Program-made: the position numbers and the translations under genes
Shown: piece by piece, positions 1-52,334 of the stretch
How the letters are laid out: each line of letters starts with the position of its first letter
How positions within the stretch are numbered: position 1 is the stretch's first letter
The notes under the pieces: model-generated
Databases searched by the model: none
What the model was told of the DNA's origin: nothing
The model's input: the letters and a program-made list of their open reading frames with translations, nothing else
Source of the DNA: a virus
IMG/VR virus record: IMGVR_UViG_3300025030_000093
Location: 2,507 to 66,506 of that record
Length of the DNA: 64,000 nucleotides
Strand: one strand, 5' to 3'

Positions 1-198
1 CTTGAGCGTATGTTGACGCCCCTGAAAGACGCGGAGGGCGTTCACCTGTCCGATGGCCGGACGCTGGAATACTTGCCGACAACCAAGAGTATCCTCGACC
101 AGAAGAAGTTCAAAGCGGAACAGCCTGAACTCTATGAGGCGTTTTTAAAGCCCTCTATTTCACGCACACCCAGATTGAAAGGGACTATCAATGAGTGA
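1..198 (+). CDS. C-terminal fragment of probable YqaJ-like exonuclease/recombinase partner (partial at window edge)
   Basis: Frame open from base 1; LDQKKFKAEQPELYEAF resembles YqaJ C-termini; overlaps start of RecT. Confidence 0.55.
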   Translation, partial: LERMLTPLKDAEGVHLSDGRTLEYLPTTKSILDQKKFKAEQPELYEAFLKPSISRTPRLKGTINE

Positions 199-1231
199 AG
201 AACAGCAGGAATCCACAGAGGTAGCAACGCACACCCCGGCATCGACACAGACAATTCAAACTTATGCTGGTCGGGGATTAAACCTGACCACCTTTGATGA
301 AATGTGGAGATTTGCCAAGGCCGTTGCCGCATCGGGTCTTGCGCCGAAGGATATGCAGAAGCCTGAGACGCTTTTAGTGGCAATCGAAATGGGACTTGAA
401 GTTGGCTTGACGCCGATGCAGGCTATCCAGAATATCGCCGTGATTAATGGACGCCCCGGCTTGTGGGGTGATGCAATCCCCGGCCTTGTGCGCAGCAGCG
501 GCCACCAAGAGTATTATAAGCAGGAGAAGATTGGTACACCCAGCACAGATGGTTATGGTTATAAGGTTACGAGCAAGCGCAAGGGCGACCCGAATCCAAT
601 CGAGACAACTTTCACGGTGGCCGATGCTAAGAAAGCAAGCTTATGGACCAAGGCCGGACCGTGGACATTCTATCCTGATAGAATGCTACTTAATCGCGCA
701 AGAGCCTTCAATGCCCGCGATAACTTTCCCGATGTACTCAAGGGCATGCGGACGGCGGAAGAAATCATGGATACCGATTTTGAGGTATTAGATTCTACGC
801 CTCTTGCCGATGGCGACAAGACGAACCGGCTGGCGGAGAAACTGACGAAGAAAGAAGAAGTCGAAAAGGTTATTGAGGTTATGGAAGAAGCAGCATACCC
901 GCCCATTTCTGACACGGCGGCCTTTGTCGAACAGGTCGAGAAAGCCACGCAAGAGCGTATTCTTAACGGTCCTCCGCTTGTTGACGGTGATGTGATAAAA
1001 GCCGAACCGCACCAGTCGCCGCAGGAGTCACCGCAGGAGTCACGGCCAAACGATACTTTACCTACCGGCCAAGTGAAAGCGGGGAAGGCGAGTTACATTC
1101 TCAAAAAGCTGGAACTCCGAGAAATATCTATGCCGGACTTGCGGCGTGTAACCAAGGAACTCGGTATCAAGTTCGGCATCCCGCAGAACCTCACCGAGGA
1201 AGAAGCCGGTAGGATATTGGAGAAGTTATAA
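191..1231 (+). CDS. recT: RecT-family ssDNA annealing protein with C-terminal extension
   Basis: Motifs GLEVGLTPMQAIQNIAVINGRPGLWGD and W..YPDRML..RA....ARD.FPDVL.G. Confidence 0.85.
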   Translation: MSEEQQESTEVATHTPASTQTIQTYAGRGLNLTTFDEMWRFAKAVAASGLAPKDMQKPETLLVAIEMGLEVGLTPMQAIQNIAVINGRPGLWGDAIPGLVRSSGHQEYYKQEKIGTPSTDGYGYKVTSKRKGDPNPIETTFTVADAKKASLWTKAGPWTFYPDRMLLNRARAFNARDNFPDVLKGMRTAEEIMDTDFEVLDSTPLADGDKTNRLAEKLTKKEEVEKVIEVMEEAAYPPISDTAAFVEQVEKATQERILNGPPLVDGDVIKAEPHQSPQESPQESRPNDTLPTGQVKAGKASYILKKLELREISMPDLRRVTKELGIKFGIPQNLTEEEAGRILEKL

Positions 1232-1252
1232 ACAATCCAGAAGGAGGCTGTA

Positions 1253-1420
1253 ATGCCAGAGACAAAAGCAGTAATAGATGTGTGGATTCCCGTCGTGGGC
1301 GCGCAAGAACAGATGAAAAAAGTGGTGCGTATTTATGATTTAGACACAACGCTCAGAACTGTTTTGGAAAATCTGCCATTGGATGCAGATGATATTAGGC
1401 TTGAGTTTGCAAACGAATAG
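1253..1420 (+). CDS. hypothetical protein (55 aa)
   Basis: AAGGAGG RBS, ATG 1253 to TAG 1420. Confidence 0.6.
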   Translation: MPETKAVIDVWIPVVGAQEQMKKVVRIYDLDTTLRTVLENLPLDADDIRLEFANE

Positions 1421-1590
1421 AACTTTGCGGGCTGTCTAATGCGGCCTTTGGGTGATACGGCAGCGGCCAACTACCATTAGGCCAATACGGAGTAGATGGG
1501 GAATAGCTAACTCACCGAAAAGTATTGGAAGATAAAGTAGCGGCAACCGTATGGGAAGTCTGGTAAGGTGGGAAAATCCAGCGCAAAGTT
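1421..1590 (+). ncRNA. candidate structured ncRNA (element A)
   Basis: Closing stem AACTTTGCG/CGCAAAGTT; internal pairs GTCTAATG/CATTAGGC, CCAATAC/GTATTGG, ATACGG/CCGTAT, GGTGA/TCACC; no annotated ORF. Confidence 0.55.
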
Positions 1591-1600
1591 ATGACAACAA

Positions 1601-1737
1601 GGGCCGGGCGGCTGACTGCCATAGGCCGTAAGGCGGAGGGCATGTTCATGTCTATGGGTTTGGCGGACAGCAGAGAATCAATGCCGCAAGGTGAGTCTGC
1701 TTATGCTAAGAGCCGGTTCGAGTCCGGCCCCGGCCCT
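1601..1737 (+). ncRNA. tRNA-like RNA with 8-bp acceptor, canonical T-arm and large structured insert (element B)
   Basis: GGGCCGGG/CCCGGCCC acceptor; GCCGG-TTCGAGT-CCGGC T-arm; about 100-nt interior with GNRA hairpins, no anticodon arm. Confidence 0.65.
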
Positions 1738-1746
1738 GTCTAAAAT

Positions 1747-1820
1747 TGCGGACCTTGGTGTAATGGCTGCGCGACCGGGGATGGCCCGGAGGGAGTCGGA
1801 TAGCCACCGACAGGCCCGTA
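1747..1820 (+). tRNA. degenerate tRNA-like cloverleaf (element C; His-like, non-canonical loops)
   Basis: Acceptor (TG)CGGACCT/AGGCCCG(TA) with one mismatch, D-arm GTGT-AATGGCT-GCGC, arm CCGG-GGATGGC-CCGG, T-arm GTCGG-ATAGCCA-CCGAC. Confidence 0.45.
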
Positions 1821-1844
1821 CAAAATCTTGAAAGAAGATGAATA

Positions 1845-2033
1845 ATGACCGAGCCTCAGTATTGTTCCGAACCGGACTGCGAAGTTGATTCTTTACTTGA
1901 TGCAGGTTACTACTGTTCCGTCTGCAAACGCTGGATTTGCGAGAAGCATTACAAAGAGAAACACCAGCATTGCCGGGGCTGCGCTACGGACTTGCCACCG
2001 GAAGCCGTTGATCCACGCGATACAAGAATATAG
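1845..2033 (+). CDS. small Cys/His-rich zinc-finger protein
   Basis: CxxxxC, CxxC, CxxH, CxxC motifs. Confidence 0.65.
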   Translation: MTEPQYCSEPDCEVDSLLDAGYYCSVCKRWICEKHYKEKHQHCRGCATDLPPEAVDPRDTRI

Positions 2034-2124
2034 GGCCGGGTGGCGCAAGCCGGGGTCTGGGACGAGAGACCTGCGTTCGAGAAGCGGTCGCCCGCCGGGA
2101 TGTAAACCAACCGGCCCCGGCCTT
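2033..2124 (+). ncRNA. tRNA-like RNA sharing the 8/5 helix of element B (element D)
   Basis: GGGCCGGG/CCCGGCCT and GCCGG/CCGGC stems, GGC-GCAA-GCC hairpin, GGGTCT/AGACCT stem. Confidence 0.55.
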
Positions 2125-2142
2125 TTAAAATCCGGAGGAAAG

Positions 2143-2322
2143 ATGAAGATTTACGAAGGACCAGGAAAGTCAAGAGAGGCGTGGAGCCGGGGACGCGGAC
2201 GAAAACTTGTGATAAATATAATTCAGGGCGGGGCAGAACTACCCATATTTATTTCTCCACGCAACGCCAAGCGTGTGATAGACGAGATTCGCAAGGCGAT
2301 CAAGGAAAGTGAGGGAAAATGA
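2143..2322 (+). CDS. hypothetical protein
   Basis: GGAGG RBS; ATGA coupling to next gene. Confidence 0.6.
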   Translation: MKIYEGPGKSREAWSRGRGRKLVINIIQGGAELPIFISPRNAKRVIDEIRKAIKESEGK

Positions 2323-2582
2323 TCTTCGACTGGACTGATCCCGAAAAAAGGATACTGGATGAAATTGCCGATCCCGCAATGGGGGAGGAAGATATTATCT
2401 TCGACTACGCCGCCCTGATCGTCTTAACTGGCTATGGCAAGCCCGATCCCCGCATTGATACTGCCAAGATCAACGCGGCAATCGTCAATCGCTGGTCCAA
2501 AACGGCGCGTGATCGGATCAAAAAGGCGGCCTGGAAAAAAGTGGAAGCGGCGTGGGCAAACGAAAGAGAGGGGGGAGAATGA
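2319..2582 (+). CDS. hypothetical phage protein
   Basis: Translationally coupled ORF with RBS. Confidence 0.7.
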   Translation: MIFDWTDPEKRILDEIADPAMGEEDIIFDYAALIVLTGYGKPDPRIDTAKINAAIVNRWSKTARDRIKKAAWKKVEAAWANEREGGE

Positions 2583-2770
2583 AGGCAGAATATCCCGATG
2601 GTGAAAAGACAAAGGGAATCAGCACTGGATCGAGCAAGGGTTGGTACACCAAGGACTTATTCTTTCTTGAGTGCTGGTGTGATGGTTTTTACGGCCAGAC
2701 TACTTTCGACCGCGCAGCGGCGAGGAAACTCCAAGAAGAACTTCGCCTGTTCTGCAAGGGGGAGGAATGA
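2579..2770 (+). CDS. hypothetical protein
   Basis: ATGA overlaps on both sides. Confidence 0.65.
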   Translation: MKAEYPDGEKTKGISTGSSKGWYTKDLFFLECWCDGFYGQTTFDRAAARKLQEELRLFCKGEE

Positions 2771-3192
2771 TGGACCTCGAAACGTTTTGGAAGGGCCTCG
2801 GCGCGGAAATAGCCACAAGTCCAATAGAAAAAATTCCGGGCGGTATATTGGCATTGTGGACAGTGCAAGGCAACTACATCGGCTTTGTTCGCATCCTGCC
2901 CAATGGAGAACATGATTGCTATTTATTCGATCCCTACGATGCCGAGCGGGTCCCGCTGGAAGTGCTGTGGAAAGGACTGGAAAAGAAAATGGCGGAACGA
3001 GCGGCAAGAGGCAATTATGAACCTCGAATGAAAGAAGCCGAGGCCGTGGTTATTTTACGCTACAATCCCCTGTACGGCTATCAAGTGTGTACGGGCAACT
3101 TTAATCTGATAACCGATTATATTTATAGCCTTGATCCCCGCGCTTGTATTATCTCCGCCATCGAGCGGCTTATCGAGGAGGCCGAGAAATGA
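2767..3192 (+). CDS. hypothetical protein
   Basis: GGAGG RBS, coupled ORF. Confidence 0.7.
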   Translation: MMDLETFWKGLGAEIATSPIEKIPGGILALWTVQGNYIGFVRILPNGEHDCYLFDPYDAERVPLEVLWKGLEKKMAERAARGNYEPRMKEAEAVVILRYNPLYGYQVCTGNFNLITDYIYSLDPRACIISAIERLIEEAEK

Positions 3193-3398
3193 CTGACAAA
3201 TCGCGGGTGAATCCTCTCGTTGCTGAGATCAGAAGTCGTGGTTTGTATTGGGGCGAAGTTGTAGAAAGGCCGGGTGGTGAACAAATACTAAAGGCTGAAA
3301 TGGCCGAGCTTTTGCGACAACACGGCCTTGAACTTTTGTGGATTATCAAGAATTGGGCGGACATGAAACATGAGGAGGCCGAGAATGAAAGCAAGTGA
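3189..3398 (+). CDS. hypothetical protein
   Basis: GAGGAGG RBS, ATGA overlap. Confidence 0.65.
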   Translation: MTDKSRVNPLVAEIRSRGLYWGEVVERPGGEQILKAEMAELLRQHGLELLWIIKNWADMKHEEAENESK

Positions 3399-3759
3399 GT
3401 TTCTCGCACTTTGTGAAGACAACTGGGAGGTGGCAAACTGCGAAGTGCAGGCCGCTATGGGACATACTTATTCTGAAGGGCTTTATATTGATAGCCCCGA
3501 AGAAAAACGCCGCGCCGATGCTGTCCTTGAGCGCGAGGTCGAGGACGCGCTGTTCAAACTCGCGGATGAAAAGGATTTAGGCTTGACCGGGTTTCGTGAC
3601 CAAGAGTATAAGGATGTCAATGGAAAATGGACATGCTTTATTCGGTTCCAACTTGCACTTAGGGCGCGAGATGGGGATACAATAATGATGGTATTTGCCA
3701 GCAATAAGTCTTGGCTCATGGCCGCCGCGCTGGTCGAACTAACCACGGAGAGAAAATGA
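3385..3759 (+). CDS. hypothetical protein
   Basis: GAGGAGG RBS. Confidence 0.7.
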   Translation: MKASEFLALCEDNWEVANCEVQAAMGHTYSEGLYIDSPEEKRRADAVLEREVEDALFKLADEKDLGLTGFRDQEYKDVNGKWTCFIRFQLALRARDGDTIMMVFASNKSWLMAAALVELTTERK

Positions 3760-3971
3760 TTATTACTACTCCCGGCAAATATCGCCTGCTTGCTCCGTTA
3801 TTTACGCGGAACACAATCAGTTGCGGCACTATACCAGCAGGCCAAATTATAGAAATTACACAAGTGGATTCGTGCCTGCATAAAGCTATTGGCCCTAAAT
3901 TACTTGGCTGGTGCTATTGGGATATAGACGCTGAATCAGTGCCGAAGGAGGCTTCCGATGGAACTGCTTGA
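3756..3971 (+). CDS. hypothetical protein
   Basis: GGAG RBS, ATGA overlap. Confidence 0.6.
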   Translation: MIITTPGKYRLLAPLFTRNTISCGTIPAGQIIEITQVDSCLHKAIGPKLLGWCYWDIDAESVPKEASDGTA

Positions 3972-4608
3972 CCTGACAAAGCTGACGGAAAGGCTTGAGC
4001 GAATACAAAATTATTATCCGCCTGAAACTGCCGTACTGAAGCGATATGTAATAGATGTATCCGATCTTCTTGCCGAGGACGTGGCGCTGCGGAAAGAGAA
4101 CGAAAGACTCCGGGCCAAGCTCGAAAAGGCCATAGTAGAAATTAAAACAGTCCGCCCTCTTATGGTGCGGACATTTCGGATGCTCTTGTACTGGCATGAG
4201 GAGTTTGGCAACCGCCGTACAGACGATGACGAACAAAGTTTATTGTTAGACCAGATGGAGAAGGCCATGACAGGGCCGAAAGAGGAATATAACCGTGGCG
4301 TTGATACGGCCTATCACGCCAATGACGCCTTAATTACTTCGCTCAAGGCCAAACTTGAGAAGGTACGGACTGGTTTAGAAATAATAGTAAACAAGAGGCA
4401 GCCGGTGGACAACCTGATGGGCGACAAAGATATTGCTGCCATCCTGCTCGCCGATCTTGATTCAGCCGCAGATACGCCCTTTGATACTTTGATGGATAAG
4501 CTCCGCGAAACCAAGATTCAGTCTATCGGCCAAGCCGAGGCGAACATGGCAAATGACTCTGACTTAGCCGGAGAAGTGGAGCATTTTAATGATGAGTTTG
4601 AACGCTAA
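3958..4608 (+). CDS. coiled-coil hypothetical protein
   Basis: GGAGG RBS; repeated L(R/K)AKLEK heptads. Confidence 0.7.
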   Translation: MELLDLTKLTERLERIQNYYPPETAVLKRYVIDVSDLLAEDVALRKENERLRAKLEKAIVEIKTVRPLMVRTFRMLLYWHEEFGNRRTDDDEQSLLLDQMEKAMTGPKEEYNRGVDTAYHANDALITSLKAKLEKVRTGLEIIVNKRQPVDNLMGDKDIAAILLADLDSAADTPFDTLMDKLRETKIQSIGQAEANMANDSDLAGEVEHFNDEFER

Positions 4609-4629
4609 CAGGAGAAGTGGAGGCGAAAG

Positions 4630-4890
4630 ATGTCGGAGCGTGAACTTAAATCGCCACGCTGGACCGGAGCGTATTCAGGCAGCATTGAACGAATAACCCA
4701 AAAGGAAATGGATAGACTCGAATCCTCCAACTCTACACTTATGGAAACGGCTCAAGCTTTTTGCCTGAAGTTTCTGGCCTATGTCAAGTCCAACGAGGGC
4801 GACCGGATACCGGCTTACTATCATACTGAGTTTACAGCACTGAGAAACCTGGTCTTGCCCGAAAAAGAAGTGGAGGAGAAAGATGCGTGA
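4630..4890 (+). CDS. hypothetical protein
   Basis: GGAGG RBS. Confidence 0.65.
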   Translation: MSERELKSPRWTGAYSGSIERITQKEMDRLESSNSTLMETAQAFCLKFLAYVKSNEGDRIPAYYHTEFTALRNLVLPEKEVEEKDA

Positions 4891-5215
4891 TAGTGATGCC
4901 GGGCGTAGGCAGGAACTTGCCATAGAGAATGCCGCGCTCAAGGCCACCAACCTTGAATTAGAGCAGCAAGTAGCACACTGGAAAGCATCTTACTACCCAC
5001 TCAAGGAAGATTTTGAGGGTCTGCGGAAAAATGTAGCGGGCCTCGTAACTGATGGTGTCTTGTCTGATCTTAAACTCAAGGCCGAGGTCGAGAAGCTGGA
5101 GAAGGTGCTGGATAAGATATTAAAGGTTGCCGTCCTATACTATCCAGATTATACGCCCCTACGGAAGCAGTTTGACGAGATAATCAGCATCGCCCGCCAA
5201 GCGCGGAAGGAGTGA
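4883..5215 (+). CDS. coiled-coil hypothetical protein
   Basis: GGAGG RBS, heptad pattern. Confidence 0.65.
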   Translation: MRDSDAGRRQELAIENAALKATNLELEQQVAHWKASYYPLKEDFEGLRKNVAGLVTDGVLSDLKLKAEVEKLEKVLDKILKVAVLYYPDYTPLRKQFDEIISIARQARKE

Positions 5216-5219
5216 AAGA

Positions 5220-5378
5220 ATGACAAAACTTGAAGAATTACAGGCTGAGTTCAAACTAATTAAGGCGGAGCTTTCTGCTGCACAACGGGCACTAAATGAA
5301 TTGGAAATAGATAGAAACGCCTTTAAAAGCGTTGCGGTTTCGCTATCAAAGGCCCTCGAAAGATACCATAAGGAGTGA
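5220..5378 (+). CDS. small coiled-coil protein
   Basis: AAGGAG RBS; MTKLEELQAEF..., below ORF-track length cutoff. Confidence 0.55.
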   Translation: MTKLEELQAEFKLIKAELSAAQRALNELEIDRNAFKSVAVSLSKALERYHKE

Positions 5379-5551
5379 AAGATGAAAGTAAGCATCCACG
5401 CTATTGCACCAGCTATAATTCTTGCGGCGTTAGTCGGCGGCCCGTTTCTTATCAAGGCATACCTCATGTATATTTCTTGGCTTTTTGAGGAGGCTTGTCC
5501 ATTTACTACTTTGTGGCCTTCGTGGCCTTTTACATGGTAAAGGAGCATCCA

Positions 5552-5914
5552 ATGACCACTGAACAGATAGCCGAGGCGCTGGGGCTAAAAGAGGTTGAGT
5601 ACCAACCATCTGATCAGGCGGGAAGTAATGTCTATGAGAAGCTATGGGTCAACGCTGATGAATCGTACTGCTACGGGAGTCTCGGCGAAGTAGAGAAGTG
5701 GCTTGCCTCTCCCGATGGAGAAAAGGCCGTCCGGGACAAAGTGCGGGAACTGTGGTGTGAGGGTTACAGGTGCATTGATTTAGTTCTGCGCGACAACGGA
5801 CAGGTTTTAGGCTTGCTCGACGAAATGGGCGAGCGTCGCAACTTTATTGACGCTGTCGAGTCCTCCGCGTGGCTTGCCGCGCTGGAATTTTTATGGGAAA
5901 GGAAAGAGAAATGA
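5552..5914 (+). CDS. hypothetical protein (possible phage ABA-sandwich-like)
   Basis: AAGGAG RBS before MTTEQIAEALG; C-terminal AWLAALE helix. Confidence 0.6.
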   Translation: MTTEQIAEALGLKEVEYQPSDQAGSNVYEKLWVNADESYCYGSLGEVEKWLASPDGEKAVRDKVRELWCEGYRCIDLVLRDNGQVLGLLDEMGERRNFIDAVESSAWLAALEFLWERKEK

Positions 5915-6114
5915 GCGACAATCTGGTGTCTGGACTACACGATCAAATTTGTCGCGCAAAAGAGATACTTCCGCATTATGAGGCGGTTCCAGCAGGAGCC
6001 TTTGGCGCAATAATGATCCGAGCCGCAATTCAACAAGGGGAAAGCGCCTTATCCGGTGGGAATATTGAAGAAATGATTAGGGCGCACAAATTACTTGAGG
6101 GGATTGCAGAATGA
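5911..6114 (+). CDS. phage hypothetical protein
   Basis: ATGA overlap; PAGAFGA motif. Confidence 0.65.
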   Translation: MSDNLVSGLHDQICRAKEILPHYEAVPAGAFGAIMIRAAIQQGESALSGGNIEEMIRAHKLLEGIAE

Positions 6115-6200
6115 AACGCTTACTACTTCTACTACTTCTCCTGCCGGTGCTGTCATTACCGGCGCGACGTGGGGCACGATAAAGAAGGAAAAGCGTCCAG

Positions 6201-6539
6201 GTGCGATTTAATATCAAAAATACAATAATAGATTTAGCTCTAATAGTTTGGTTATCATCCGGTGTGCTTGTCGGGATTGCGGCCCTTGCCGTTATATTTA
6301 ATAGCCACGAGAACTGTGTTGAAGATAACCGTAACTACTTGCAACAACGAGGATTCTATTATATCTTAACGGACTCGACTCAACAGTTCTATGTATTAAA
6401 CGATCACAACTATCTTTATTTATACAGAGATACGACAGCCTATCATAACTATTTAAGGAAACAAGAACTTATAGAACGCGAAAAGCTGTTGTACCTAAAA
6501 CACTTACTACTTGGCAATAACAAAGGAGGGATAAAATGA
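6201..6539 (+). CDS. membrane-anchored hypothetical protein (AT-rich)
   Basis: N-terminal TM helix; lower GC than neighbours. Confidence 0.65.
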   Translation: MRFNIKNTIIDLALIVWLSSGVLVGIAALAVIFNSHENCVEDNRNYLQQRGFYYILTDSTQQFYVLNDHNYLYLYRDTTAYHNYLRKQELIEREKLLYLKHLLLGNNKGGIK

Positions 6540-7282
6540 AGCTCATCTTTCTACTACTTCTCCTGCCGGTGCTGGCCGGAGCACAGGTTGATTCTTCAAA
6601 TGGATATTGGAGGTTTATCCCATACCAAGCGAGAGGAGGGGGGCCGCTTTCTCGCTACTCTTTCGGGCATTGTGAGTGGGTTCCCGCTGTCATGTCCCGG
6701 CACAAGGCGGAAAAAGAATGGCAGGCGATATACGATTTCTGTGTGGCGGCCTTCGACCACGATCTTGCGACCATATTTGGCAAAACCTACATAGTCAACT
6801 TGGATTGTTTTGCCGATCATCAAACCATACTGTGCCCGATTTGTAGAAAAGATTGGTACAAGGGAAGTAATACTCTTATTCTCAAACATAAGGGCAAAAT
6901 CATCGACCGCATTAAAGCCGTTAAGTTATTTCCACCGCGCGGAATTTTTCAATGGTACGCCCTGCCCTCGCATCGTGGGGACGGCCCCGTAACGCATGAG
7001 CACGGCAAGCACTCGTGCGTCCTCTATTTTGATGGTCTAACAATAAAAGAACAGTCCAGGCAGCAGGCAACTATGCCAGTGATGCCGACAAAATGGTCAG
7101 TGGAGGGCAAGATATTTGCACTTCAGGCCCGCCTTGACTCCCTTGAGGCGAAGTTGTCCAGGGTGCATATCGACTCGGTTATGGTTGCAGGTGAGTGGAG
7201 TTTCACGCCTAGACGGGTAGATCAGTATTGGATTCCACCGCACTGGAAGCAGATAATCTCATTCGACCCGGAGGGGGAATGA
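6536..7282 (+). CDS. secreted hypothetical protein (Sec signal peptide)
   Basis: MKLIFLLLLLPVLAGA|Q signal; GGAGG RBS. Confidence 0.7.
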   Translation: MKLIFLLLLLPVLAGAQVDSSNGYWRFIPYQARGGGPLSRYSFGHCEWVPAVMSRHKAEKEWQAIYDFCVAAFDHDLATIFGKTYIVNLDCFADHQTILCPICRKDWYKGSNTLILKHKGKIIDRIKAVKLFPPRGIFQWYALPSHRGDGPVTHEHGKHSCVLYFDGLTIKEQSRQQATMPVMPTKWSVEGKIFALQARLDSLEAKLSRVHIDSVMVAGEWSFTPRRVDQYWIPPHWKQIISFDPEGE

Positions 7283-7380
7283 CAAAGCGTGGGCATATCT
7301 TACCCGGTGAGTATCCGGGCTTAGTGCATCCGCCATACTCTACTGAAAGAGCGCCTGGCAATCTCTTTTAAGGAGGCCCC

Positions 7381-7710
7381 ATGCAAGCCTTGACGCAGGA
7401 ACAAGCCGAACGCGCCGCGAAATGCTGCGGTCCGCAGTGGGTGTCAGAAGTTGCCGTGATGTCTTTTACGCAGAGAACCGATCCCGACTTCTGGTTTCCG
7501 AGATTGTGGCAAGAATTAAGAATACGCTGCCCGAAGTTCAATATGATTGGCGACTCAAATGAACCCCGATTTGAATTTCATTTAGGAAGTAGAATTGTTT
7601 GGAATGATGATATGTTTCTCGCCCTGCTGGAGGCAATCGAGGCGCTGGAGGGGGAGAAAGATGAAGCCCTACGGCGAGTTAATCTCTTTTCTCTGGACAA
7701 CTCCAATTAG
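7381..7710 (+). CDS. hypothetical protein
   Basis: AAGGAGG RBS. Confidence 0.6.
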   Translation: MQALTQEQAERAAKCCGPQWVSEVAVMSFTQRTDPDFWFPRLWQELRIRCPKFNMIGDSNEPRFEFHLGSRIVWNDDMFLALLEAIEALEGEKDEALRRVNLFSLDNSN

Positions 7711-7844
7711 GTATTTATTCTACTGGATTGCCGCAGTCGCCATTGGTCTTGTGATTATATTTTTTTCGCTGGCGAACTAATATCCGAGGAGAATTTAAAA
7801 TGCGCGGAAAGATTGACATCCCCGAAAATAGAAAGGGGAGATAG

Positions 7845-8639
7845 ATGAGGTTTATTGATTTAACAGGGCAACAATTCGGAAAATGGATGACCATACAGCA
7901 AGCACCGAACAAAGATGGGCGCACGACGTGGTTGTGCCGGTGCGAGTGTGGTACGGAGGCCATCATAAAGTCTTTCATACTACGCGGGGGTGAGTCAACC
8001 CATTGCACTGACTGTAATGGCCCGTGCAGGACAATTGATTTAATGGGACAGAGATTTGGAAAGTGGCTTGTAATCGCTGGGCCTTATCACAAAGGACGCC
8101 ATGCTGGCTGGTTATGCCGCTGCGAATGCGGGGCAGAGGCGATATTGGGTGGAGCTTGTCTTCGACGAGGTGGCTCAAAGCAATGTCGTTCTTGTGCATC
8201 AAAGGGACATGGGTTATCACGAACTATAATTTACCATAGATGGGAATCCATGATGGGCAGGTGCTACGGCGATAAGCGCTCATTCTATAAAAATTATGGT
8301 GGGCGTGGAATTAAAGTTTGCGATGAATGGCATAACCCCGTGGCGTTTGTCGAATGGGCTTTAGCAAACGGCTACGAAGAAAATCTGTCTCTTGATCGTA
8401 TTGACAACGACGGCGATTATTGTCCTGAGAACTGCCGATGGGCAACGTTAAAACAACAGGCGAGAAATAAAAGAACGTCTCGATTGATTGATATTGATGG
8501 TACTATAAAGACATTGAGCGAATGGTCTGAAGCGGCGGGTTTGTGTAGAGAAACAATTAGGTATCGCTATCTGCGCGGCTGGCCGAAGAATCAGTTGTTA
8601 TGTGCACCCCCAAGCCATAGCAATCGAGTTTGTCCCTAA
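7845..8639 (+). CDS. free-standing HNH homing endonuclease with duplicated N-terminal IDLxGQxFG/WLCRCECG module
   Basis: YGGRGIKVCDEW, LSLDRIDNDGDYCPENCRWAT..QQ.RN motifs. Confidence 0.9.
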   Translation: MRFIDLTGQQFGKWMTIQQAPNKDGRTTWLCRCECGTEAIIKSFILRGGESTHCTDCNGPCRTIDLMGQRFGKWLVIAGPYHKGRHAGWLCRCECGAEAILGGACLRRGGSKQCRSCASKGHGLSRTIIYHRWESMMGRCYGDKRSFYKNYGGRGIKVCDEWHNPVAFVEWALANGYEENLSLDRIDNDGDYCPENCRWATLKQQARNKRTSRLIDIDGTIKTLSEWSEAAGLCRETIRYRYLRGWPKNQLLCAPPSHSNRVCP

Positions 8640-8699
8640 CGCACTCCGAAGGGCGGTGCATGAGTTGGATTTGAAGCATAGGAGAAATGGGAAGGCCGA

Positions 8700-8993
8700 A
8701 TGACCTGTATCTTCTGCGGCGGCATCGAACACGCTTGGAACTTCTTTCGTAAGAAGCGTTCACCTTGCCGGGTAGGAGATAACGCGGTCAGTATAGTATG
8801 CTCTACCTGTGTCCAGCGGTTACTGCGGGGCAAGAAAGAGACACTACAAAAAGCACTCGACAAAGCAACGGAACTTGACCGGCCAGATCAGGTGAAAGCG
8901 TTAAAGCATCTGGTGTTCGAGAATATATCTACTACGCTTTCTACGGAAGGCGTACGCGAACGAAAAGTAAGTCTGCGGCACAAAGGCGGCTGA
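8700..8993 (+). CDS. zinc-ribbon hypothetical protein
   Basis: CIFC...CSTC. Confidence 0.6.
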   Translation: MTCIFCGGIEHAWNFFRKKRSPCRVGDNAVSIVCSTCVQRLLRGKKETLQKALDKATELDRPDQVKALKHLVFENISTTLSTEGVRERKVSLRHKGG

Positions 8994-9209
8994 AAATAGA
9001 TCGTTGATTGTAGAGCACCGTAGGCGTCCAGTTACAACAAGGAGGAGAACAATGCGGCTTTTGCTTGATATATTAGAAGTACTTTTCTATTGGGTGATGA
9101 TACTGGTCGCATATACTATATGTGCAATTCTTGTGGTAGTTGTTGGGCTATTCTGGCTTGCGAATGGACCGAGATTGGGCATAGAAAACAACGCATAAAG
9201 GAGCGTGAA

Positions 9210-9401
9210 ATGGCTCTTAATTTAAGAAAATATAAAGATTCACCGCCGGAACTTCTGCGCGAGATCGAAAAATTGCGGGACGAAAACGATCATTTGTATT
9301 ATTTGCTGAACGAATGGATGGCAGAACATGACAATTACGATTGGCTTTCAGATGAGACTCGCAAGGTACTGGATATAGCAGATAACCCGGAGGGGAAATG
9401 A
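9210..9401 (+). CDS. hypothetical protein
   Basis: AAGGAG RBS, coupled to next gene. Confidence 0.6.
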   Translation: MALNLRKYKDSPPELLREIEKLRDENDHLYYLLNEWMAEHDNYDWLSDETRKVLDIADNPEGK

Positions 9402-9796
9402 CCTTTTATCTTGCAAGTAGGTATGATAACAAGTTCTTTTTGCGCGGAGTGCGGGATAAACTTAGTGCAATGGGCCATGAAGTATTCAGTAATTGGATCG
9501 ACGAAAAGGAGCCGCCGAATATACAATTAGATGAAGTGCCGGTTGAGAAACTACAAGAATACGCCTTACAGGACATAACAGAGATCGAGGAGGTTGATGC
9601 TTTTGTCCACTTTCAATCTATGAACCGTCCGAATATTCGCGGCGGGGCCTTAGTTGAGTTCGGCATGGCTTACATTTGGGGATTGGAAATGATTATCGTT
9701 GGCGACCGGGTGAATATATTTGACTTCCTGCCAGCGGTAACTTGTTTTCCGACGGTTGAAGAATTTCTAACTTGGGCGGAAAAGGAGAGCGCATGA
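9398..9796 (+). CDS. nucleoside 2-deoxyribosyltransferase-like (NDT fold) protein
   Basis: FYLAS, QDITEIEEVDAFV, GGALVEFGMA with catalytic Glu position. Confidence 0.8.
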   Translation: MTFYLASRYDNKFFLRGVRDKLSAMGHEVFSNWIDEKEPPNIQLDEVPVEKLQEYALQDITEIEEVDAFVHFQSMNRPNIRGGALVEFGMAYIWGLEMIIVGDRVNIFDFLPAVTCFPTVEEFLTWAEKESA

Positions 9797-10110
9797 ATCT
9801 CTTTGATATTATAGAGTTATGTGGAAGGAATAAGTCTGGGGGATTTTTGGGCATTGGATGGGAACGTGAGGGCGTATGGCTGACCGAGAATAAACGCTTT
9901 TATGAAGATCGTTGCCATCGTCCTTACGAAAAGATAGTTGTTTCCCATTCCCTGAAAGATGCCTTGATGGATTATATTGACTCCAAGCTCCAATACTGCC
10001 GGAAGGTATATGCAGAAGCCGGTACAACGCGAGTTCGTATGCGCGAAGATGAGGCACTATTTTTAGAGGCCCGCGCTGAATTAGATAAAATTGCGGAAAA
10101 GGAGAAATGA
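9793..10110 (+). CDS. hypothetical protein
   Basis: AAGGAG RBS, ATGA overlap. Confidence 0.65.
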   Translation: MNLFDIIELCGRNKSGGFLGIGWEREGVWLTENKRFYEDRCHRPYEKIVVSHSLKDALMDYIDSKLQYCRKVYAEAGTTRVRMREDEALFLEARAELDKIAEKEK

Positions 10111-10457
10111 AATGGAACTTAAAAGTCCAACTAAGTTGACAAATGACGAATGGAGAAACGCCGAGGGATTACAAAAGTTACTATGTATGCTGTTCGTGTT
10201 TGGCTCACCTATACTTATCGCGTGTATTGTGCTTGGCGTAATGTATTGTACCTATCTATTGGGACAGTGGGCGAAAACCTTATGACCTTTCCTGCTGGCT
10301 GGCCGTGTAGCTCAGAGACATGGAGAAAGCAGATGAAGGAACTCCGGGAACGGCCACTTGAATTATATTGGTACGAAGGCTATCTTTATATTAACGGCTC
10401 CTTGCATGGTTACGGCATGGAGAGGACAAGGCATAGGCCAAGAATAGGAGAGAAAAA

Positions 10458-10697
10458 ATGAACTTTCCTTTGCCGGAAGCATTAAAGGAGTTAAGGAGAG
10501 CAACTAATGGCAATTTCAGTATTAATTCCCGGCAAGAGGTAGTTGGCGGCGAAACCATCACTATACGCGCAGGCGAAGTTGGCGAAACTCAGCGAAGTTT
10601 ACAATATATATGTCGAGACAATAACGATATGAATTTTGATCCGTGGCTATGGGAACTTCAGGGCGCTTTAAACGCTATCCTGAAAGGACAAGGCTAA
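10458..10697 (+). CDS. hypothetical protein
   Basis: AGGAG RBS. Confidence 0.6.
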   Translation: MNFPLPEALKELRRATNGNFSINSRQEVVGGETITIRAGEVGETQRSLQYICRDNNDMNFDPWLWELQGALNAILKGQG

Positions 10698-10997
10698 ATG
10701 AGTCTCTTTGATAAGATTCTCATGCGCACATTGCGGAAAGAAGGAGAAAGAAGAATGAATCAAGAGGAATTTAATGAACGATCAAACATGCTGGATAGAA
10801 TAGTGCAACTGAAGGCTGAATTAGAAATGGCGGAACTTGTCGAACGGCGATTGCGAACATCATGGGAAGAAGAATGCGCCAAGTTAATAAAGCTTCAAAA
10901 GGCATGGGATCGCCTAATTCATGTTATAGAATCCAAGCCATTGATACAGACTGAAATCGCTAATGCGTTGGAGAAAGAAGGAGTAGAAAATGAATAG
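10698..10997 (+). CDS. coiled-coil hypothetical protein
   Basis: Coupled ORF; alternative internal start MNQEE with AAGGAG RBS. Confidence 0.6.
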   Translation: MSLFDKILMRTLRKEGERRMNQEEFNERSNMLDRIVQLKAELEMAELVERRLRTSWEEECAKLIKLQKAWDRLIHVIESKPLIQTEIANALEKEGVENE

Positions 10998-11193
10998 AGC
11001 AGAAGAACGGCAAGCGATGCTGGATGAGATTGAAGCCCTGAAACTATCAAAAGAGTCCATACGATTAGACCTCAATCTCGCAAGAGCCTATTTATCCTGT
11101 GCGGTCAATAGCCTCGACTGGGACGGCTGGGAACGGAACAAGGGAAAAGTTTCACTGTTCTTAGCGACACTGAAGGAAGTATATGATGATTGA
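10990..11193 (+). CDS. hypothetical protein
   Basis: AAGGAG RBS. Confidence 0.6.
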   Translation: MNRAEERQAMLDEIEALKLSKESIRLDLNLARAYLSCAVNSLDWDGWERNKGKVSLFLATLKEVYDD

Positions 11194-11219
11194 TTTCATA
11201 ATTCCCATAGGGAGTAGAC

Positions 11220-11744
11220 ATGGCAAAGATTCTTGCGATTGACCCCGGTTCGGAGCAAAGCGCCTACGTAATGTGGGATACAGAGCGCCATGACTTTGTT
11301 ATTGACGGCGGTATAGGCGATGAAGCGGGTCTGCCTATTGACGAAAAGGCTATTTTGCCCAATGAAGAAATGCACAATGTCGTTAGTCGGGCTATAATCA
11401 ATATTGGCATTGAGTTAATTGCTATTGAAATGATTCAATCTTACGGTCATGCAGTTGGCCGTTCAACATTTCAAACTATCCTTTTTATCGGTAGCATAAT
11501 GCAAGCTGCCGGATACGAAATGGCCGTTGTTCCCACTGTAATTCCTGTCAGGCTTTACGCCCGCACGACAATCAAAGGAGCTTTGGGTGGGTGTAAAACT
11601 GATGCAGATGTACGACAAGCAATCAGGCAGAGATATGGCGAGGCCCGCAAAGGGGAGAAACTTGAAGGTGTTGTGAAGGATATTTGGTCAGCATTGGCTC
11701 TTGCTATTGTTTTGGAGGAAAACGACAAACTTAAAACATGGTAA
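11220..11744 (+). CDS. RuvC-like Holliday junction resolvase
   Basis: ILAIDPG, IAIE, DIWSALALA acidic catalytic motifs. Confidence 0.8.
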   Translation: MAKILAIDPGSEQSAYVMWDTERHDFVIDGGIGDEAGLPIDEKAILPNEEMHNVVSRAIINIGIELIAIEMIQSYGHAVGRSTFQTILFIGSIMQAAGYEMAVVPTVIPVRLYARTTIKGALGGCKTDADVRQAIRQRYGEARKGEKLEGVVKDIWSALALAIVLEENDKLKTW

Positions 11745-11899
11745 ACGGCGAGAAGAACTATATCCATGTTCAGATATTGTCGGTATAACTCCACGTTACT
11801 TCGGGGCGTGGACGCGGCGGTACTGGCTGAATCTCCACTACCGTACCGAAGTTACGGCATTCGGCCAGCCGCCGGCTTTTATCAAGAAAGGGTTACAAA

Positions 11900-12265
11900 A
11901 TGAAATGGCTTTTAGGTGAAACGCTTTTGCCTTTAGAATTTTCTCGGCGCGGCCTGCGCTTTCTATGGCAACGACTATGTCGCGGATGGGATGATACTGT
12001 ATTGTGGGATTTATATGCTCAACATACAGCATACATCTTACCACGATTAAGGGCCTTTCGAGATCATCATGCTGGTTATCCGGGTTCACTTACAGATAAG
12101 CAATGGCAGAAAATCTTAGATAACATAGTCGATGCGTTCGAGTTAATCGCAATCCGGGATGCTTGGGAATGGGGAAACGATAAAGGGCGGATAGAGAAAA
12201 ACGAAAAGAAGATTAAAAAAGGCTTGCGATTATTTGCTAAATGGTATCTTTATTTGTGGGATTAG
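11900..12265 (+). CDS. phage hypothetical protein
   Basis: W.L...ILPRL..F....GYP...W..IL..I...F...GL.LF..Y..LWD pattern typical of a phage family. Confidence 0.75.
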   Translation: MKWLLGETLLPLEFSRRGLRFLWQRLCRGWDDTVLWDLYAQHTAYILPRLRAFRDHHAGYPGSLTDKQWQKILDNIVDAFELIAIRDAWEWGNDKGRIEKNEKKIKKGLRLFAKWYLYLWD

Positions 12266-36956: not shown

Positions 36957-38195
36957 CTAACTCGATGAAGTCACTACCTGCATATCCAGTGTGCCGCGCA
37001 CGAAACTCCGCAACATCAGCCGCACGGCGCATACCGGACTGGTTATCGCTTCAGCCTGATTCGCGCTTGCCCAATCCGCCGGATAGATATAGGACGCCGT
37101 GTATTCATCCATAGAGCCGTCCAGTACATAGTCTCTGGTATAGGCAAAGCGGTGTTCCAGATTAGCGTCAACCGAACGCTCGACACGAATGCCTATCGTA
37201 AGCGCATAAATATCGGTCGGAATCAACTGGCTTTCGCATTCGTCCGCCGAACCGACCGTAACATTGCCAGCCAGAGCCGCAGAAGCGCGTACAGTATGCA
37301 CGACTGAAAAATTCTTGGTCCCCTTGACGGTCGTGGTATTAGGCCCTGTAATCACTTCCGTCAACACCAGGCCCTTGCGATCATAGCCACCGACAGTAAA
37401 CGTCTTGGTTGATTCATCACCAGCCGCCGTAATCGAAACGTGTCGCGCCTGAACAGAACAACCAGCACCGTTAAATACCAAGCTACCAGCGGCGGATAAC
37501 GACTGCGATTCGCAGATGAAATCCAGATCGCCAGCCACACCGACCGTTACCGTACTGGCTGTCGCGCCATCAGTAGCAACGTCTATCACCTCAGAGAACA
37601 GAACCGTACCCGAAGATGTCCCGATAGCCGTGCCGGTAATGGCGTCAGATACCTCAAGGCCATCCGCGTCGCGGCCATAGGCCGTAAACGTCACCAATGA
37701 ATCATCACCAGCCGATACGACTCTCAGGGTACGCGCCTGAACGATTGTCGCCGTACCGTACATCTTGCAACTGCGACAAGCCACGCCGCTATGCGCGAAT
37801 CCGTTGGCCGCTGCCAATGTTTCCGAAGTAGCAAAACAATCATCGTCAGCCGCAGTACCGACGGTAACGTTACCCGCCGTCGCTCCGCTTGACACAACCC
37901 TTGTGATCGTTTTGAACGACTGAGACGTATCCACGGTAGTCGCATTAGCGCCGGTAACTGTTTCTTCAATCGAACCGCCATCCGCAGCCATGCCATATAC
38001 CGTGAAGATAATACCTGAATCGTCAGCGGCAGATGTTATGCGAACTGCGGCGGCAGTACCGAGATAGGCTACCGTATCCGCCTTATACAAAGCACCGTTG
38101 ATAATCAAATCAGCCGCACCAGCAACCGTCTGTGACGCACAGATGCCATTCGGGTCTGCTACCGTCATTCTGAGGGAAATCTCTTTCGGTCTCAT
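36957..38195 (-). CDS. structural protein with three about 100-aa beta repeats
   Basis: Repeat unit DGIC.SQ.....L.ING...V.ITS..DDS...FT.YG...E.ITG....TV.....F..V....NVTVG. Confidence 0.75.
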   Translation of the reverse strand: MRPKEISLRMTVADPNGICASQTVAGAADLIINGALYKADTVAYLGTAAAVRITSAADDSGIIFTVYGMAADGGSIEETVTGANATTVDTSQSFKTITRVVSSGATAGNVTVGTAADDDCFATSETLAAANGFAHSGVACRSCKMYGTATIVQARTLRVVSAGDDSLVTFTAYGRDADGLEVSDAITGTAIGTSSGTVLFSEVIDVATDGATASTVTVGVAGDLDFICESQSLSAAGSLVFNGAGCSVQARHVSITAAGDESTKTFTVGGYDRKGLVLTEVITGPNTTTVKGTKNFSVVHTVRASAALAGNVTVGSADECESQLIPTDIYALTIGIRVERSVDANLEHRFAYTRDYVLDGSMDEYTASYIYPADWASANQAEAITSPVCAVRLMLRSFVRGTLDMQVVTSSS

Positions 38196-52158: not shown

Positions 52159-52179
52159 TTTCCCTCTCATAGGCGGTAA

Positions 52180-52250
52180 GGGGAGGGTGCCGGTGCCTGC
52201 ATTGGGCTTTGGTTCCGATAGCAGAGGGTTCGACTCCCTCCCGCTCCACC
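52180..52250 (+). tRNA. D-arm-less tRNA-like RNA, anticodon TTG (Gln), Ala-type acceptor
   Basis: T-arm GAGGG-TTCGACT-CCCTC; arm ATTGGG-CTTTGGT-TCCGAT; acceptor GGGGAGG/CCGCTCC followed by ACC. Confidence 0.55.
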
Positions 52251-52263
52251 GTTTTAAGACAAT

Positions 52264-52334
52264 GACCCGGTCATCTAATGGCAGGACGCGCGACTTTAAA
52301 TCGTGATACGGGGGTTAGAGCCCCCTCCGGGCCA
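52264..52334 (+). tRNA. tRNA with TTA anticodon (ochre-suppressor-like; possibly degenerate)
   Basis: Cloverleaf GACCCGG/CCGGGCC, ATCT-AATGGCA-GGAC, CGCGA-CTTTAAA-TCGTG, GGGGG-TTAGAGC-CCCCT. Confidence 0.65.

Follow-up and report, generated by a model that had tools for sequence, protein, structure and literature searches.

Downstream of the recT-like gene of an uncultured virus (IMG/VR record IMGVR_UViG_3300025030_000093) lies an island of four predicted structured RNAs, here termed elements A to D. Two of them, B and D, present the same tRNA-like outer part (the clamp: an acceptor helix and a stacked T-arm) around unrelated interiors (the cargo). Judged from its sequence, the island belongs to the phage tRNA-like stable RNAs, a known but poorly understood kind, and by analogy of build its closest known relative is the species 1 RNA (rnaC) of phage T4. 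We favour the reading that the elements are co-transcribed, tRNA-derived RNAs whose top half would recruit the host enzymes that process tRNA ends and would stabilise a variable cargo; we give this reading about an even chance of being right. The window, i.e. the whole stretch of DNA analysed, comprises 64,000 of the 66,506 bases of the record (positions 2,507 to 66,506), the completeness of which was estimated by CheckV at 88%. Near-identical DNA was present in groundwater and soil metagenome runs. Coordinates refer to the window unless a related locus (L number) is named.

The clamp of elements B and D

The acceptor helix of element B is formed by GGGCCGGG (1601-1608) and CCCGGCCC (1729-1736). 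A1600-U1737 is a possible ninth pair, and the inverted repeat is 9 nucleotides (nt) long with 100% identity. The T-arm, GCCGG-TTCGAGT-CCGGC (1712-1728), abuts the 3′ strand of the helix and combines a 5-base-pair (bp) stem with a consensus tRNA T-loop. B therefore has the tRNA hallmark of an acceptor helix with a stacked 5-bp T-stem and a loop of the form UUCRANY. In the whole 66.5-kb record there are only two occurrences of the T-loop word GGTTCRANTCC. The interior of B consists of hairpins, one of which carries the GNRA loop GCAA (1685-1688).

In element D, the 5′ strand GGGCCGGG (2033-2040) pairs with CCCGGCCT (2116-2123). Within this helix lie a D-like hairpin with a GNRA loop (2041-2052), two inner hairpins (2054-2071 and 2072-2086) and the T-like arm, GCCGG-(12 nt)-CCGGC, at 2094-2115. 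The 5′ ends of B and D form a 13-nt direct repeat with 12 of 13 positions identical, and the 3′ strand CCGGCCCCGGCC is identical in both, whereas blastn-short gave no match between the two interiors. An original prediction, made from the sequence of the window alone, had described an 8-bp acceptor and a 5-bp T-stem common to B and D, unrelated interiors, a GNRA hairpin in B and a 12-nt T-loop in D; all of these were found as described. The minimum-energy folds keep the clamp in both elements, with z = −2.24 for B (5 of 200 shuffles as good) and z = −1.67 for D (8 of 200). The 3′ 25-mer of B had no match in viral contigs.

Covariation and constraint in element D

The interior of D is the sole part of 1232-2330 with a sequence match in relatives. 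Positions 2042-2107 matched 2761-2826 of locus L089 with 89% identity over 66 nt (E = 2e-15), and the 91-nt elements, the L089 copy being at 2752-2842, aligned without gaps. The structure proposed for D comprises the 8-bp acceptor, a D-like hairpin of the form Y-GGC-GNAA-GCC-G, the two inner hairpins and the T-like arm. All 25 pairs hold in both copies, so that standard pairing is seen in 50 of 50 cells. Both partners differ between the copies in six pairs, five of the 8 acceptor pairs and one of the 5 pairs of the T-like stem. In six others only one partner differs, and the inner hairpins are backed by such one-sided changes only. Only 9 of 500 shuffles matched the pair support of D, and sliding the 3′ partner by 1-3 columns left only 30-54% of the positions paired. 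The covariation that the original prediction would lead one to expect in homologs is thus present, in these two sequences, as compensatory pairs in the acceptor and the T-stem.

Conservation was distributed unevenly along the element. The interior (alignment columns 9-83) is identical at 64 of 75 positions, compared with 71% for the recT DNA and 44% for the recT third codon positions. The acceptor columns are identical at only 5 of 16 positions, yet remain fully paired. From these values, D combines a constrained cargo with a clamp that has been replaced as a whole; judged by the constraint, this cargo is functional.

A covariance model of D (R1) scored 114.9 and 111.3 bits on the two copies, and its search returned only these copies and one weak match (E = 0.59). 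A two-block pattern search for D gave no match. A 15-mer of D was found in 33 viral and at least 121 genome stretches, mostly coding, all of which look like chance; its flanks were common to none of the 154 occurrences checked.

Related islands downstream of recT

The RecT-like protein, used as a query, identified 7 viral and 13 metagenome loci, some of them the same contigs under two names. The order RecT-like gene, tRNA-like unit or units, ribosome-binding site and small open reading frame (ORF) recurred at six related loci, the RecT-like proteins of which are 77% (L089), 71% (L090), 64% (L002) and 49-56% (L004, L005, L007) identical to that of the window. A unit with a terminal helix and a T-arm was located behind the RecT-like gene at five of them, and L090 carries structured units. 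Units with a canonical T-loop and units with an 11-12-nt loop in its place are listed in Table 1. The closing helix ranges from 8 to 12 bp across the relatives. In most relatives' units it is followed by YG-GCG and a D-arm-like hairpin, with an AAUGG loop in L005 and L007. The folds of the units in L002 (z = −3.75), L007 (−2.34) and L089 (−2.01) were clearly better than those of shuffles. MAFFT applied to six canonical-T-loop units gave no alignment beyond the ends, and a loop motif (G-rich plus GAAU) common to the 11-14-nt loops gave no specific pattern.

The T-loop word was concentrated in the islands. Five whole virus records (156 kb) contained eight occurrences of GGTTCRANTCC, of which seven lay in the islands behind recT, on the same strand as this gene, and one at a tRNA locus at 52.2 kb of the window; the reversed control word occurred twice. 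Over the window and 84 loci, the full T-loop word combined with a helix of at least 8 bp was confined to these islands and to true tRNAs. This specificity bears on the explanation that the elements are chance inverted repeats, part of a small protein gene or an attachment site copying the 3′ end of a host tRNA. A mechanical ORF of 50 amino acids (1591-1743) does span B, and GC-rich DNA gives many short inverted repeats (16 were listed). However, the ORF has no Shine-Dalgarno box or other ribosome-binding site. Against an attachment site, the helix is complete, with both of its strands, and none of the 66 window ORFs scanned was assigned to an integrase family. We regard this explanation as very improbable.

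At greater distance the arrangement disappeared: none of the 77 more distant RecT loci scanned (L012-L088, of 80) had such a unit behind recT. Isolated 7-bp matches in L019 and L043 look like chance, and ARAGORN found no tRNA in the 60 of these 77 loci that it scanned. A RecT search of genome contigs gave no relative, and blastn of positions 1-4000 against a phage collection that included T4 gave no match.

Several further features of the related loci were observed. A Shine-Dalgarno box and a small ORF follow each relative's unit, and the ORF is often Cys-rich. Small Cys-containing ORFs without a known family were seen after a unit at 1845-2033 of the window, at 5109-5257 of L002, from 5118 in L007 and from 4927 in L005; the small Cys ORF products of L005 and L003 look related by eye. 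A spacer with GTTCTTTGACA or a variant of it lies between structured units in L002 (5430-6520), L089 (1900-2160) and L090 (3150-3409). In L002, a true tRNA-Glu is followed by CCA and the GTTCTTTGACA spacer, and the neighbouring non-tRNA units end in AGCA followed by the same spacer. The spacer may be a shared processing site. Finally, L003 (5830-5990) and L006 (4930-5100), both of which are devoid of tRNA-like units, carry GC-rich hairpin RNAs downstream of recT. Both hairpins end in T-runs and that of L006 has TTGACA and TATAAT boxes; they may be small RNA genes with their own promoters.

Combinations of clamp and cargo

The combination seen in B and D, a common clamp around different cargo, was found again in the relatives. 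In L002, the units at 4968-5084 and 5259-5426 have 27 nt (5′) and 19 nt (3′) of their ends in common, and those at 5622-5682 and 5841-6022 have 22 and 16 nt in common; the cargo differs within each pair. Between genomes, B and the unit at 2158-2325 of L089 share 11 nt (5′) and 10 nt (3′), with unalignable interiors and different loops. There are thus three cases within genomes and one between genomes, and the D homolog of L089 provides the converse, in which the cargo was kept and the clamp differs. These cases lend substance to the idea, already put forward in the original prediction, that a tRNA-like clamp serves different cargo RNAs, and they indicate that clamp and cargo are separable.

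Strain variants were examined by comparing contigs of four other runs over 1200-2400. In three of the four runs (X15, X16 and X18), a contig skips 1605-2295, i.e. most of B, all of C and D and the 59-amino-acid ORF. Twenty-two other letters take the place of this stretch and can form a small hairpin between GGGC and GCCC, giving the site an ‘empty’ appearance. In two runs, contigs lack 1463-1540, within A. One contig agrees with the window as far as the 5′ clamp (1608/1612); ~218 unrelated letters follow before the match resumes at 2134, and these represent a third cargo behind the same 5′ clamp. The contigs compared contained no variant letters inside 1421-2295, only variant joints. Since stretches are both skipped and swapped, the island behaves as an accessory module prone to swapping.

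One conceivable extension is that the island is a natural, modular ‘tRNA scaffold’ in which cargos are exchanged between clamps by short-homology recombination, possibly catalysed by the neighbouring RecE/RecT pair, and diversify quickly as stable small RNAs, either decoys or regulators, in conflict with the host. We consider this extension tentative and rather improbable. A little less probable in our view is that the units are decoys or sponges for proteins that bind the top half of tRNA, such as defence nucleases or nucleotidyltransferases acting on tRNA acceptor ends, synthetases or EF-Tu, in an arms race. Phage tRNAs can counter tRNA-targeting defences. The deletion of 1605-2295 or its replacement by other cargo in a swap-prone accessory island, the reshuffling of clamps between relatives and the further odd tRNA-like genes at 52.2 kb would all suit such a role. 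On the other hand, Pfam and PHROG scans recognised no defence or counter-defence protein nearby, and the units, having no anticodon loops, could not serve as decoys for anticodon nucleases.

Elements A and C and the folding energies

The four discrete units of the original prediction did not stand equally well. B and D are well backed, whereas C is degenerate and A is represented by its closing helix. In A, a hairpin (1560-1581) abuts the 3′ arm of this helix and the interior is undefined. The closing helix was present in the minimum-free-energy and centroid structures, but z was only −1.1 and the interior was no better than that of shuffles; on this sequence evidence we rank A as the weakest of the four units, backed by the closing helix alone. 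The acceptor of C has 8 bp with one A.C mismatch, its T-like arm (1795-1811) has the non-consensus loop AUAGCCA, and its anticodon-like loop, GGAUGGC, lacks U33. The z values were −1.2 to −1.55 for C and −1.29 for the whole stretch.

Table 1. Features of the window and tRNA-like units of the related loci.
Feature	Location	Coordinates	Strand	Remarks
RecT-like single-strand annealing protein gene	window	191..1231	+	PHROG phrog_561, E = 1.3e-50
Small ORF, 55 amino acids	window	1253..1420	+	between recT and the RNA island; no Pfam or PHROG family
Element A	window	1421..1590	+	perfect 9-bp closing helix 1421-1429 / 1582-1590 (inverted repeat)
Element B, tRNA-like RNA, 137 nt	window	1601..1737	+	acceptor helix, canonical T-arm, ~100-nt hairpin interior
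Element C, degenerate tRNA-shaped unit, 74 nt	window	1748..1821	+	ARAGORN at thresholds of 90% or lower only
Cys/His-rich small ORF, 62 amino acids	window	1845..2033	+	between C and D; no Pfam or PHROG family
Element D, tRNA-like RNA, 92 nt	window	2033..2124	+	clamp like that of B, unrelated interior; homolog at L089 2752-2842
Small ORF, 59 amino acids	window	2143..2322	+	start 18 nt past D, GGAGG box ahead
Unit with canonical T-loop, 8-11-bp terminal helix	L002	4968-5084		
Unit with canonical T-loop, 8-11-bp terminal helix	L089	2329-2416		
Unit with canonical T-loop, 8-11-bp terminal helix	L007	4966-5095		
Unit with canonical T-loop, 8-11-bp terminal helix	L005	~4787-4899
Unit with canonical T-loop, 8-11-bp terminal helix	L004	4827-4885		only ~60 nt
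Unit with 11-12-nt loop replacing the T-loop	L002	5259-5426
Unit with 11-12-nt loop replacing the T-loop	L002	6130-6253
Unit with 11-12-nt loop replacing the T-loop	L089	2158-2325

Comparison with known RNA families

Default ARAGORN predicted nothing in 1421-2124 and a single tRNA in the window (52175-52250). At the gathering threshold, Rfam likewise found only one tRNA in the whole window (52264-52334), and a permissive Rfam search (E ≤ 10) of both strands of 1300-2250 gave no match. On 7 viral and 7 metagenome loci, Rfam at permissive E-values returned only true tRNAs and chance matches. Because Rfam and default ARAGORN found nothing in the island, the units are not a decoding tRNA, tRNA-Sec, transfer-messenger RNA (tmRNA), YrlA or another curated family, and the novelty supposed in the original prediction survives the comparison with known families.

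Anatomy pointed the same way. No unit combines a cloverleaf with a 7-nt anticodon loop, U33 and a purine at position 37; C and D keep the 5-bp T-stem, with loops of a non-consensus 7 nt and of 12 nt, respectively. The original prediction had also read the 8/5 helix as the tRNA-Sec geometry. This did not hold: the helix varies from 8 to 12 bp in the relatives, there is no UCA (Sec-type) anticodon arm, and no tRNA-Sec match was found by Rfam (E ≤ 10). A bacterial tRNA-Sec further has a 6-bp D-stem with a 4-nt loop, a long variable arm and an 8/5 branch, of which D shows only the 8/5 branch and a 4-bp D-like stem with a 4-nt loop. As to tmRNA, ARAGORN predicted none, RF00023 gave no match in 1300-2250, and the third pair of B is G-C. 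The YrlA and Y RNA families differ in that the ends of the units form an acceptor helix, and no Ro60-type (TROVE) family was found among the 66 ORFs scanned.

Relaxed ARAGORN searches (80% threshold, introns allowed) also made calls on the opposite strand and inside ORFs. A reading of B as an intron-containing tRNA-Ile(aat) was rejected; it needs a forced 30-nt intron, weak stems and two acceptor mismatches. The L007 unit as tRNA-Asp(atc), with a 43-nt intron and weak stems, was rejected as forced, and permuted tmRNA calls at the 80% threshold were rejected on account of similar calls in the T4 control.

Such calls could also be taken as traces of decay, i.e. the units would be functionless pseudo-tRNA remnants of a former phage tRNA cluster, with insertions. 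Genuine tRNAs do occur at the same place behind recT in L002 (Glu) and L101 (Met), C resembles a degraded cloverleaf, A has no convincing fold, and ARAGORN with introns forces tRNA readings on B and the L007 unit. Decay is, however, at odds with the perfect terminal helices of A and B (9/9 in each), with the compensatory change and the constrained interior of D, and with a layout that persists across RecT proteins only 50-77% identical. We therefore hold this explanation to be unlikely.

The anatomy of B is that of T4 species 1 RNA, i.e. a non-decoding RNA of ~120-140 nt at a tRNA locus, with a T-arm beside the terminal helix. In the T4 tRNA cluster, rnaC (139 nt) has rnaD and eight tRNA genes as neighbours. 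Its fold contains the canonical T-arm CCGGG-UUCGAAU-CCCGG beside the terminal helix and two long hairpins (z = −4.57). Both rnaC and B are phage-encoded, non-decoding RNAs of ~140 nt with a T-arm next to the terminal helix and an interior of hairpins, and ARAGORN reads part of rnaC as tRNA-like. In contrast to B, the terminal helix of rnaC is imperfect, and sharing of clamps or swapping of cargo has not been described for it. Sequence similarity to rnaC was not detected, either by blastn of 1-4000 against the phage collection or with model R1, which had no match in T4, and the permissive Rfam search of the island gave no match to a curated rnaC model. T4 rnaC depends on RNase P and carries modified bases. 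The function of rnaC is still called unknown in one account (PMC9697503).

Other tRNA mimics resemble the island in part. As in the tRNA-like domain of tmRNA, the two ends of a longer RNA build the acceptor and T-arm, and a large insert unrelated to tRNA separates them; unlike tmRNA, B has neither G3.U70 nor a tag reading frame. In the engineered tRNA scaffold, a foreign RNA replaces the anticodon arm while the acceptor, T and D arms are kept, and host processing and protection from nucleases are sought. That scaffold is man-made, and the island would be its natural, though unproven, counterpart. YrlA, mascRNA and the tRNA-like structures of plant viruses are, like the island units, non-coding RNAs that mimic the tRNA elbow. 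The ends of YrlA, a partner of Ro60, lie at the anticodon side, whereas those of the island units form the acceptor helix. According to one report, YrlA is found in phages too (PMC4201824). The 8-bp acceptor helix of B and D recurs in allo-tRNAs, tRNA-Sec and tRNA-His. These tRNAs differ in being decoding RNAs with anticodon arms and 8/4 or 9/3 geometry, whereas B and D are 8/5 and have no anticodon arm. As a lead only, the 8-bp helix of B includes G-1:C73, a pair that characterises bacterial tRNA-His. Some allo-tRNAs with an 8-bp acceptor are described as phage-encoded and as possible regulatory RNAs (PMC5389517). In the literature on phage tRNA-like small RNAs and decoys, we found no title or abstract describing clamp-and-cargo units in phages, which is not proof of absence; as far as we found, the modular mosaic of clamp and cargo is apparently undescribed.

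Genomic setting and proposed maturation

The ORF just upstream of recT in the record matches a RecE-like exonuclease (phrog_434, E = 2.1e-29). Pfam gave no match for either the RecT-like or the RecE-like ORF; families were assigned to 11 of the 66 window ORFs scanned, and most ORFs are without any family. All genes in 1-12,000 are on the plus strand, and a consensus scan of the plus strand of 1-4000 predicted neither a sigma-70-like promoter nor an intrinsic terminator, so the island is most simply part of one early transcript.

The units fill the non-coding gaps between genes: 0-12 nt separate their start from the preceding stop codon, and 18-25 nt, including a Shine-Dalgarno box, separate their end from the following start codon. 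A starts one base past the stop codon and D on the final base of one; the end of D is separated from the next ATG by 18 nt that include the GGAGG box. Several units may stand in tandem with no ORF between them, as A-B-C in the window and at least five units in L002.

We infer the following route. The island would be transcribed within an early recE-recT operon. The 5′ and 3′ ends of each unit would close the helix and, together with the stacked hairpin, would present the acceptor/T-arm top half of a tRNA as a chassis. Host RNase P would mature the 5′ side, and RNase Z, or RNase E with exonucleases, and the CCA-adding enzyme would mature the 3′ side. The released units would be compact, nuclease-resistant small RNAs, and their excision would also split the polycistronic mRNA shortly before the following ribosome-binding site. 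As cargo, the interior would have its own role, possibly that of a regulator, or of a decoy or binding site for some factor of host or phage. T4 rnaC is an example of a stable phage RNA built in this way.

Mitochondria use tRNAs as punctuation between cistrons, and a cis-acting role of this kind only, in which the units cut or shield the early mRNA between cistrons and the excised RNAs have no role of their own, must also be considered. Such a role would produce the arrangement of the window, L002, L004, L005, L007 and L089, where units tile the gap from stop to start and a Shine-Dalgarno box and small ORF come next, and it would tolerate B-type interiors that are not conserved between relatives, as well as the minimal ~60-nt unit of L004. 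It would not call for an interior of D identical at 64 of 75 positions against ~44% for neutral sites, which is needless for a mere cleavage signal, nor for the tandem units of the window and L002 with no ORF between them. Punctuation alone consequently seems to us doubtful, about as much so as the natural modular scaffold.

Several observations weigh against the favoured reading of processed, cargo-bearing RNAs. With terminal helices of 8-12 bp in place of 7 and no encoded CCA, the units are not standard RNase P or RNase Z substrates; moreover, a paired leader and trailer can hinder RNase P. None of the 66 window ORFs was recognised by Pfam as an RNA-processing enzyme. For D, only one homolog was found, so that two sequences carry its covariation. 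The folding energies of the window units only modestly beat those of shuffles, and for B and D the argument is accordingly drawn from the tRNA motif and the relatives, not from energy. The interior of B has no homolog in any relative searched; hence, its cargo is at most a candidate for a function.

The tRNA locus at 52 kb and antisense matches

A second locus with tRNA-like genes was observed on the plus strand near 52.2 kb. The tRNA at 52264-52334 scored 44.2 bits with Rfam and was missed by ARAGORN. Its anticodon loop is CUUUAAA; with the anticodon UUA it would read the stop codon UAA, which makes it a candidate ochre suppressor. General recoding is not indicated, since the large ORFs of the window are open under code 11. 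This tRNA has no encoded CCA, and the adjoining tRNA-like gene ends in ACC only. The latter (52175-52251) was called tRNA-Gln(ttg) by ARAGORN and gave no match to the Rfam tRNA model. At 52180-52251 it matched only the ends of the tmRNA model, with 21.6 bits (gathering threshold 47), 328 model positions being replaced by 27 nt. Its third acceptor pair is G.U and its 3′ end is ACC. By these features it looks like a stand-alone tRNA-like domain of the tmRNA type.

We also noted two 14-nt identities between the island and plus-strand sequence elsewhere in the window: 1618-1631 in B equals 37674-37687, and 1800-1813 in C equals 37383-37396. Both fall in one minus-strand ORF (36957-38195) and are hence antisense to its mRNA. 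At least two such antisense 14-mers occurred in 2 of 200 mononucleotide shuffles, and the observation is a post-hoc lead only.

Implications

For about fifty years the tRNA-like stable RNAs of T4 have been without a known function. RNAs of the same kind in a second, unrelated phage lineage would provide a comparative handle on them, through covariation, a constrained cargo and the shuffling of clamps and cargos. Units of this kind are invisible to tRNA finders and Rfam, and hence go unannotated in phage genomes. If the clamp is a processing and stability module, nature would have invented the engineers’ tRNA scaffold. In that case, the accessory islands of phages would be expected to hold RNA cargos besides proteins, which would bear on searches for RNA-based counter-defence and regulation.

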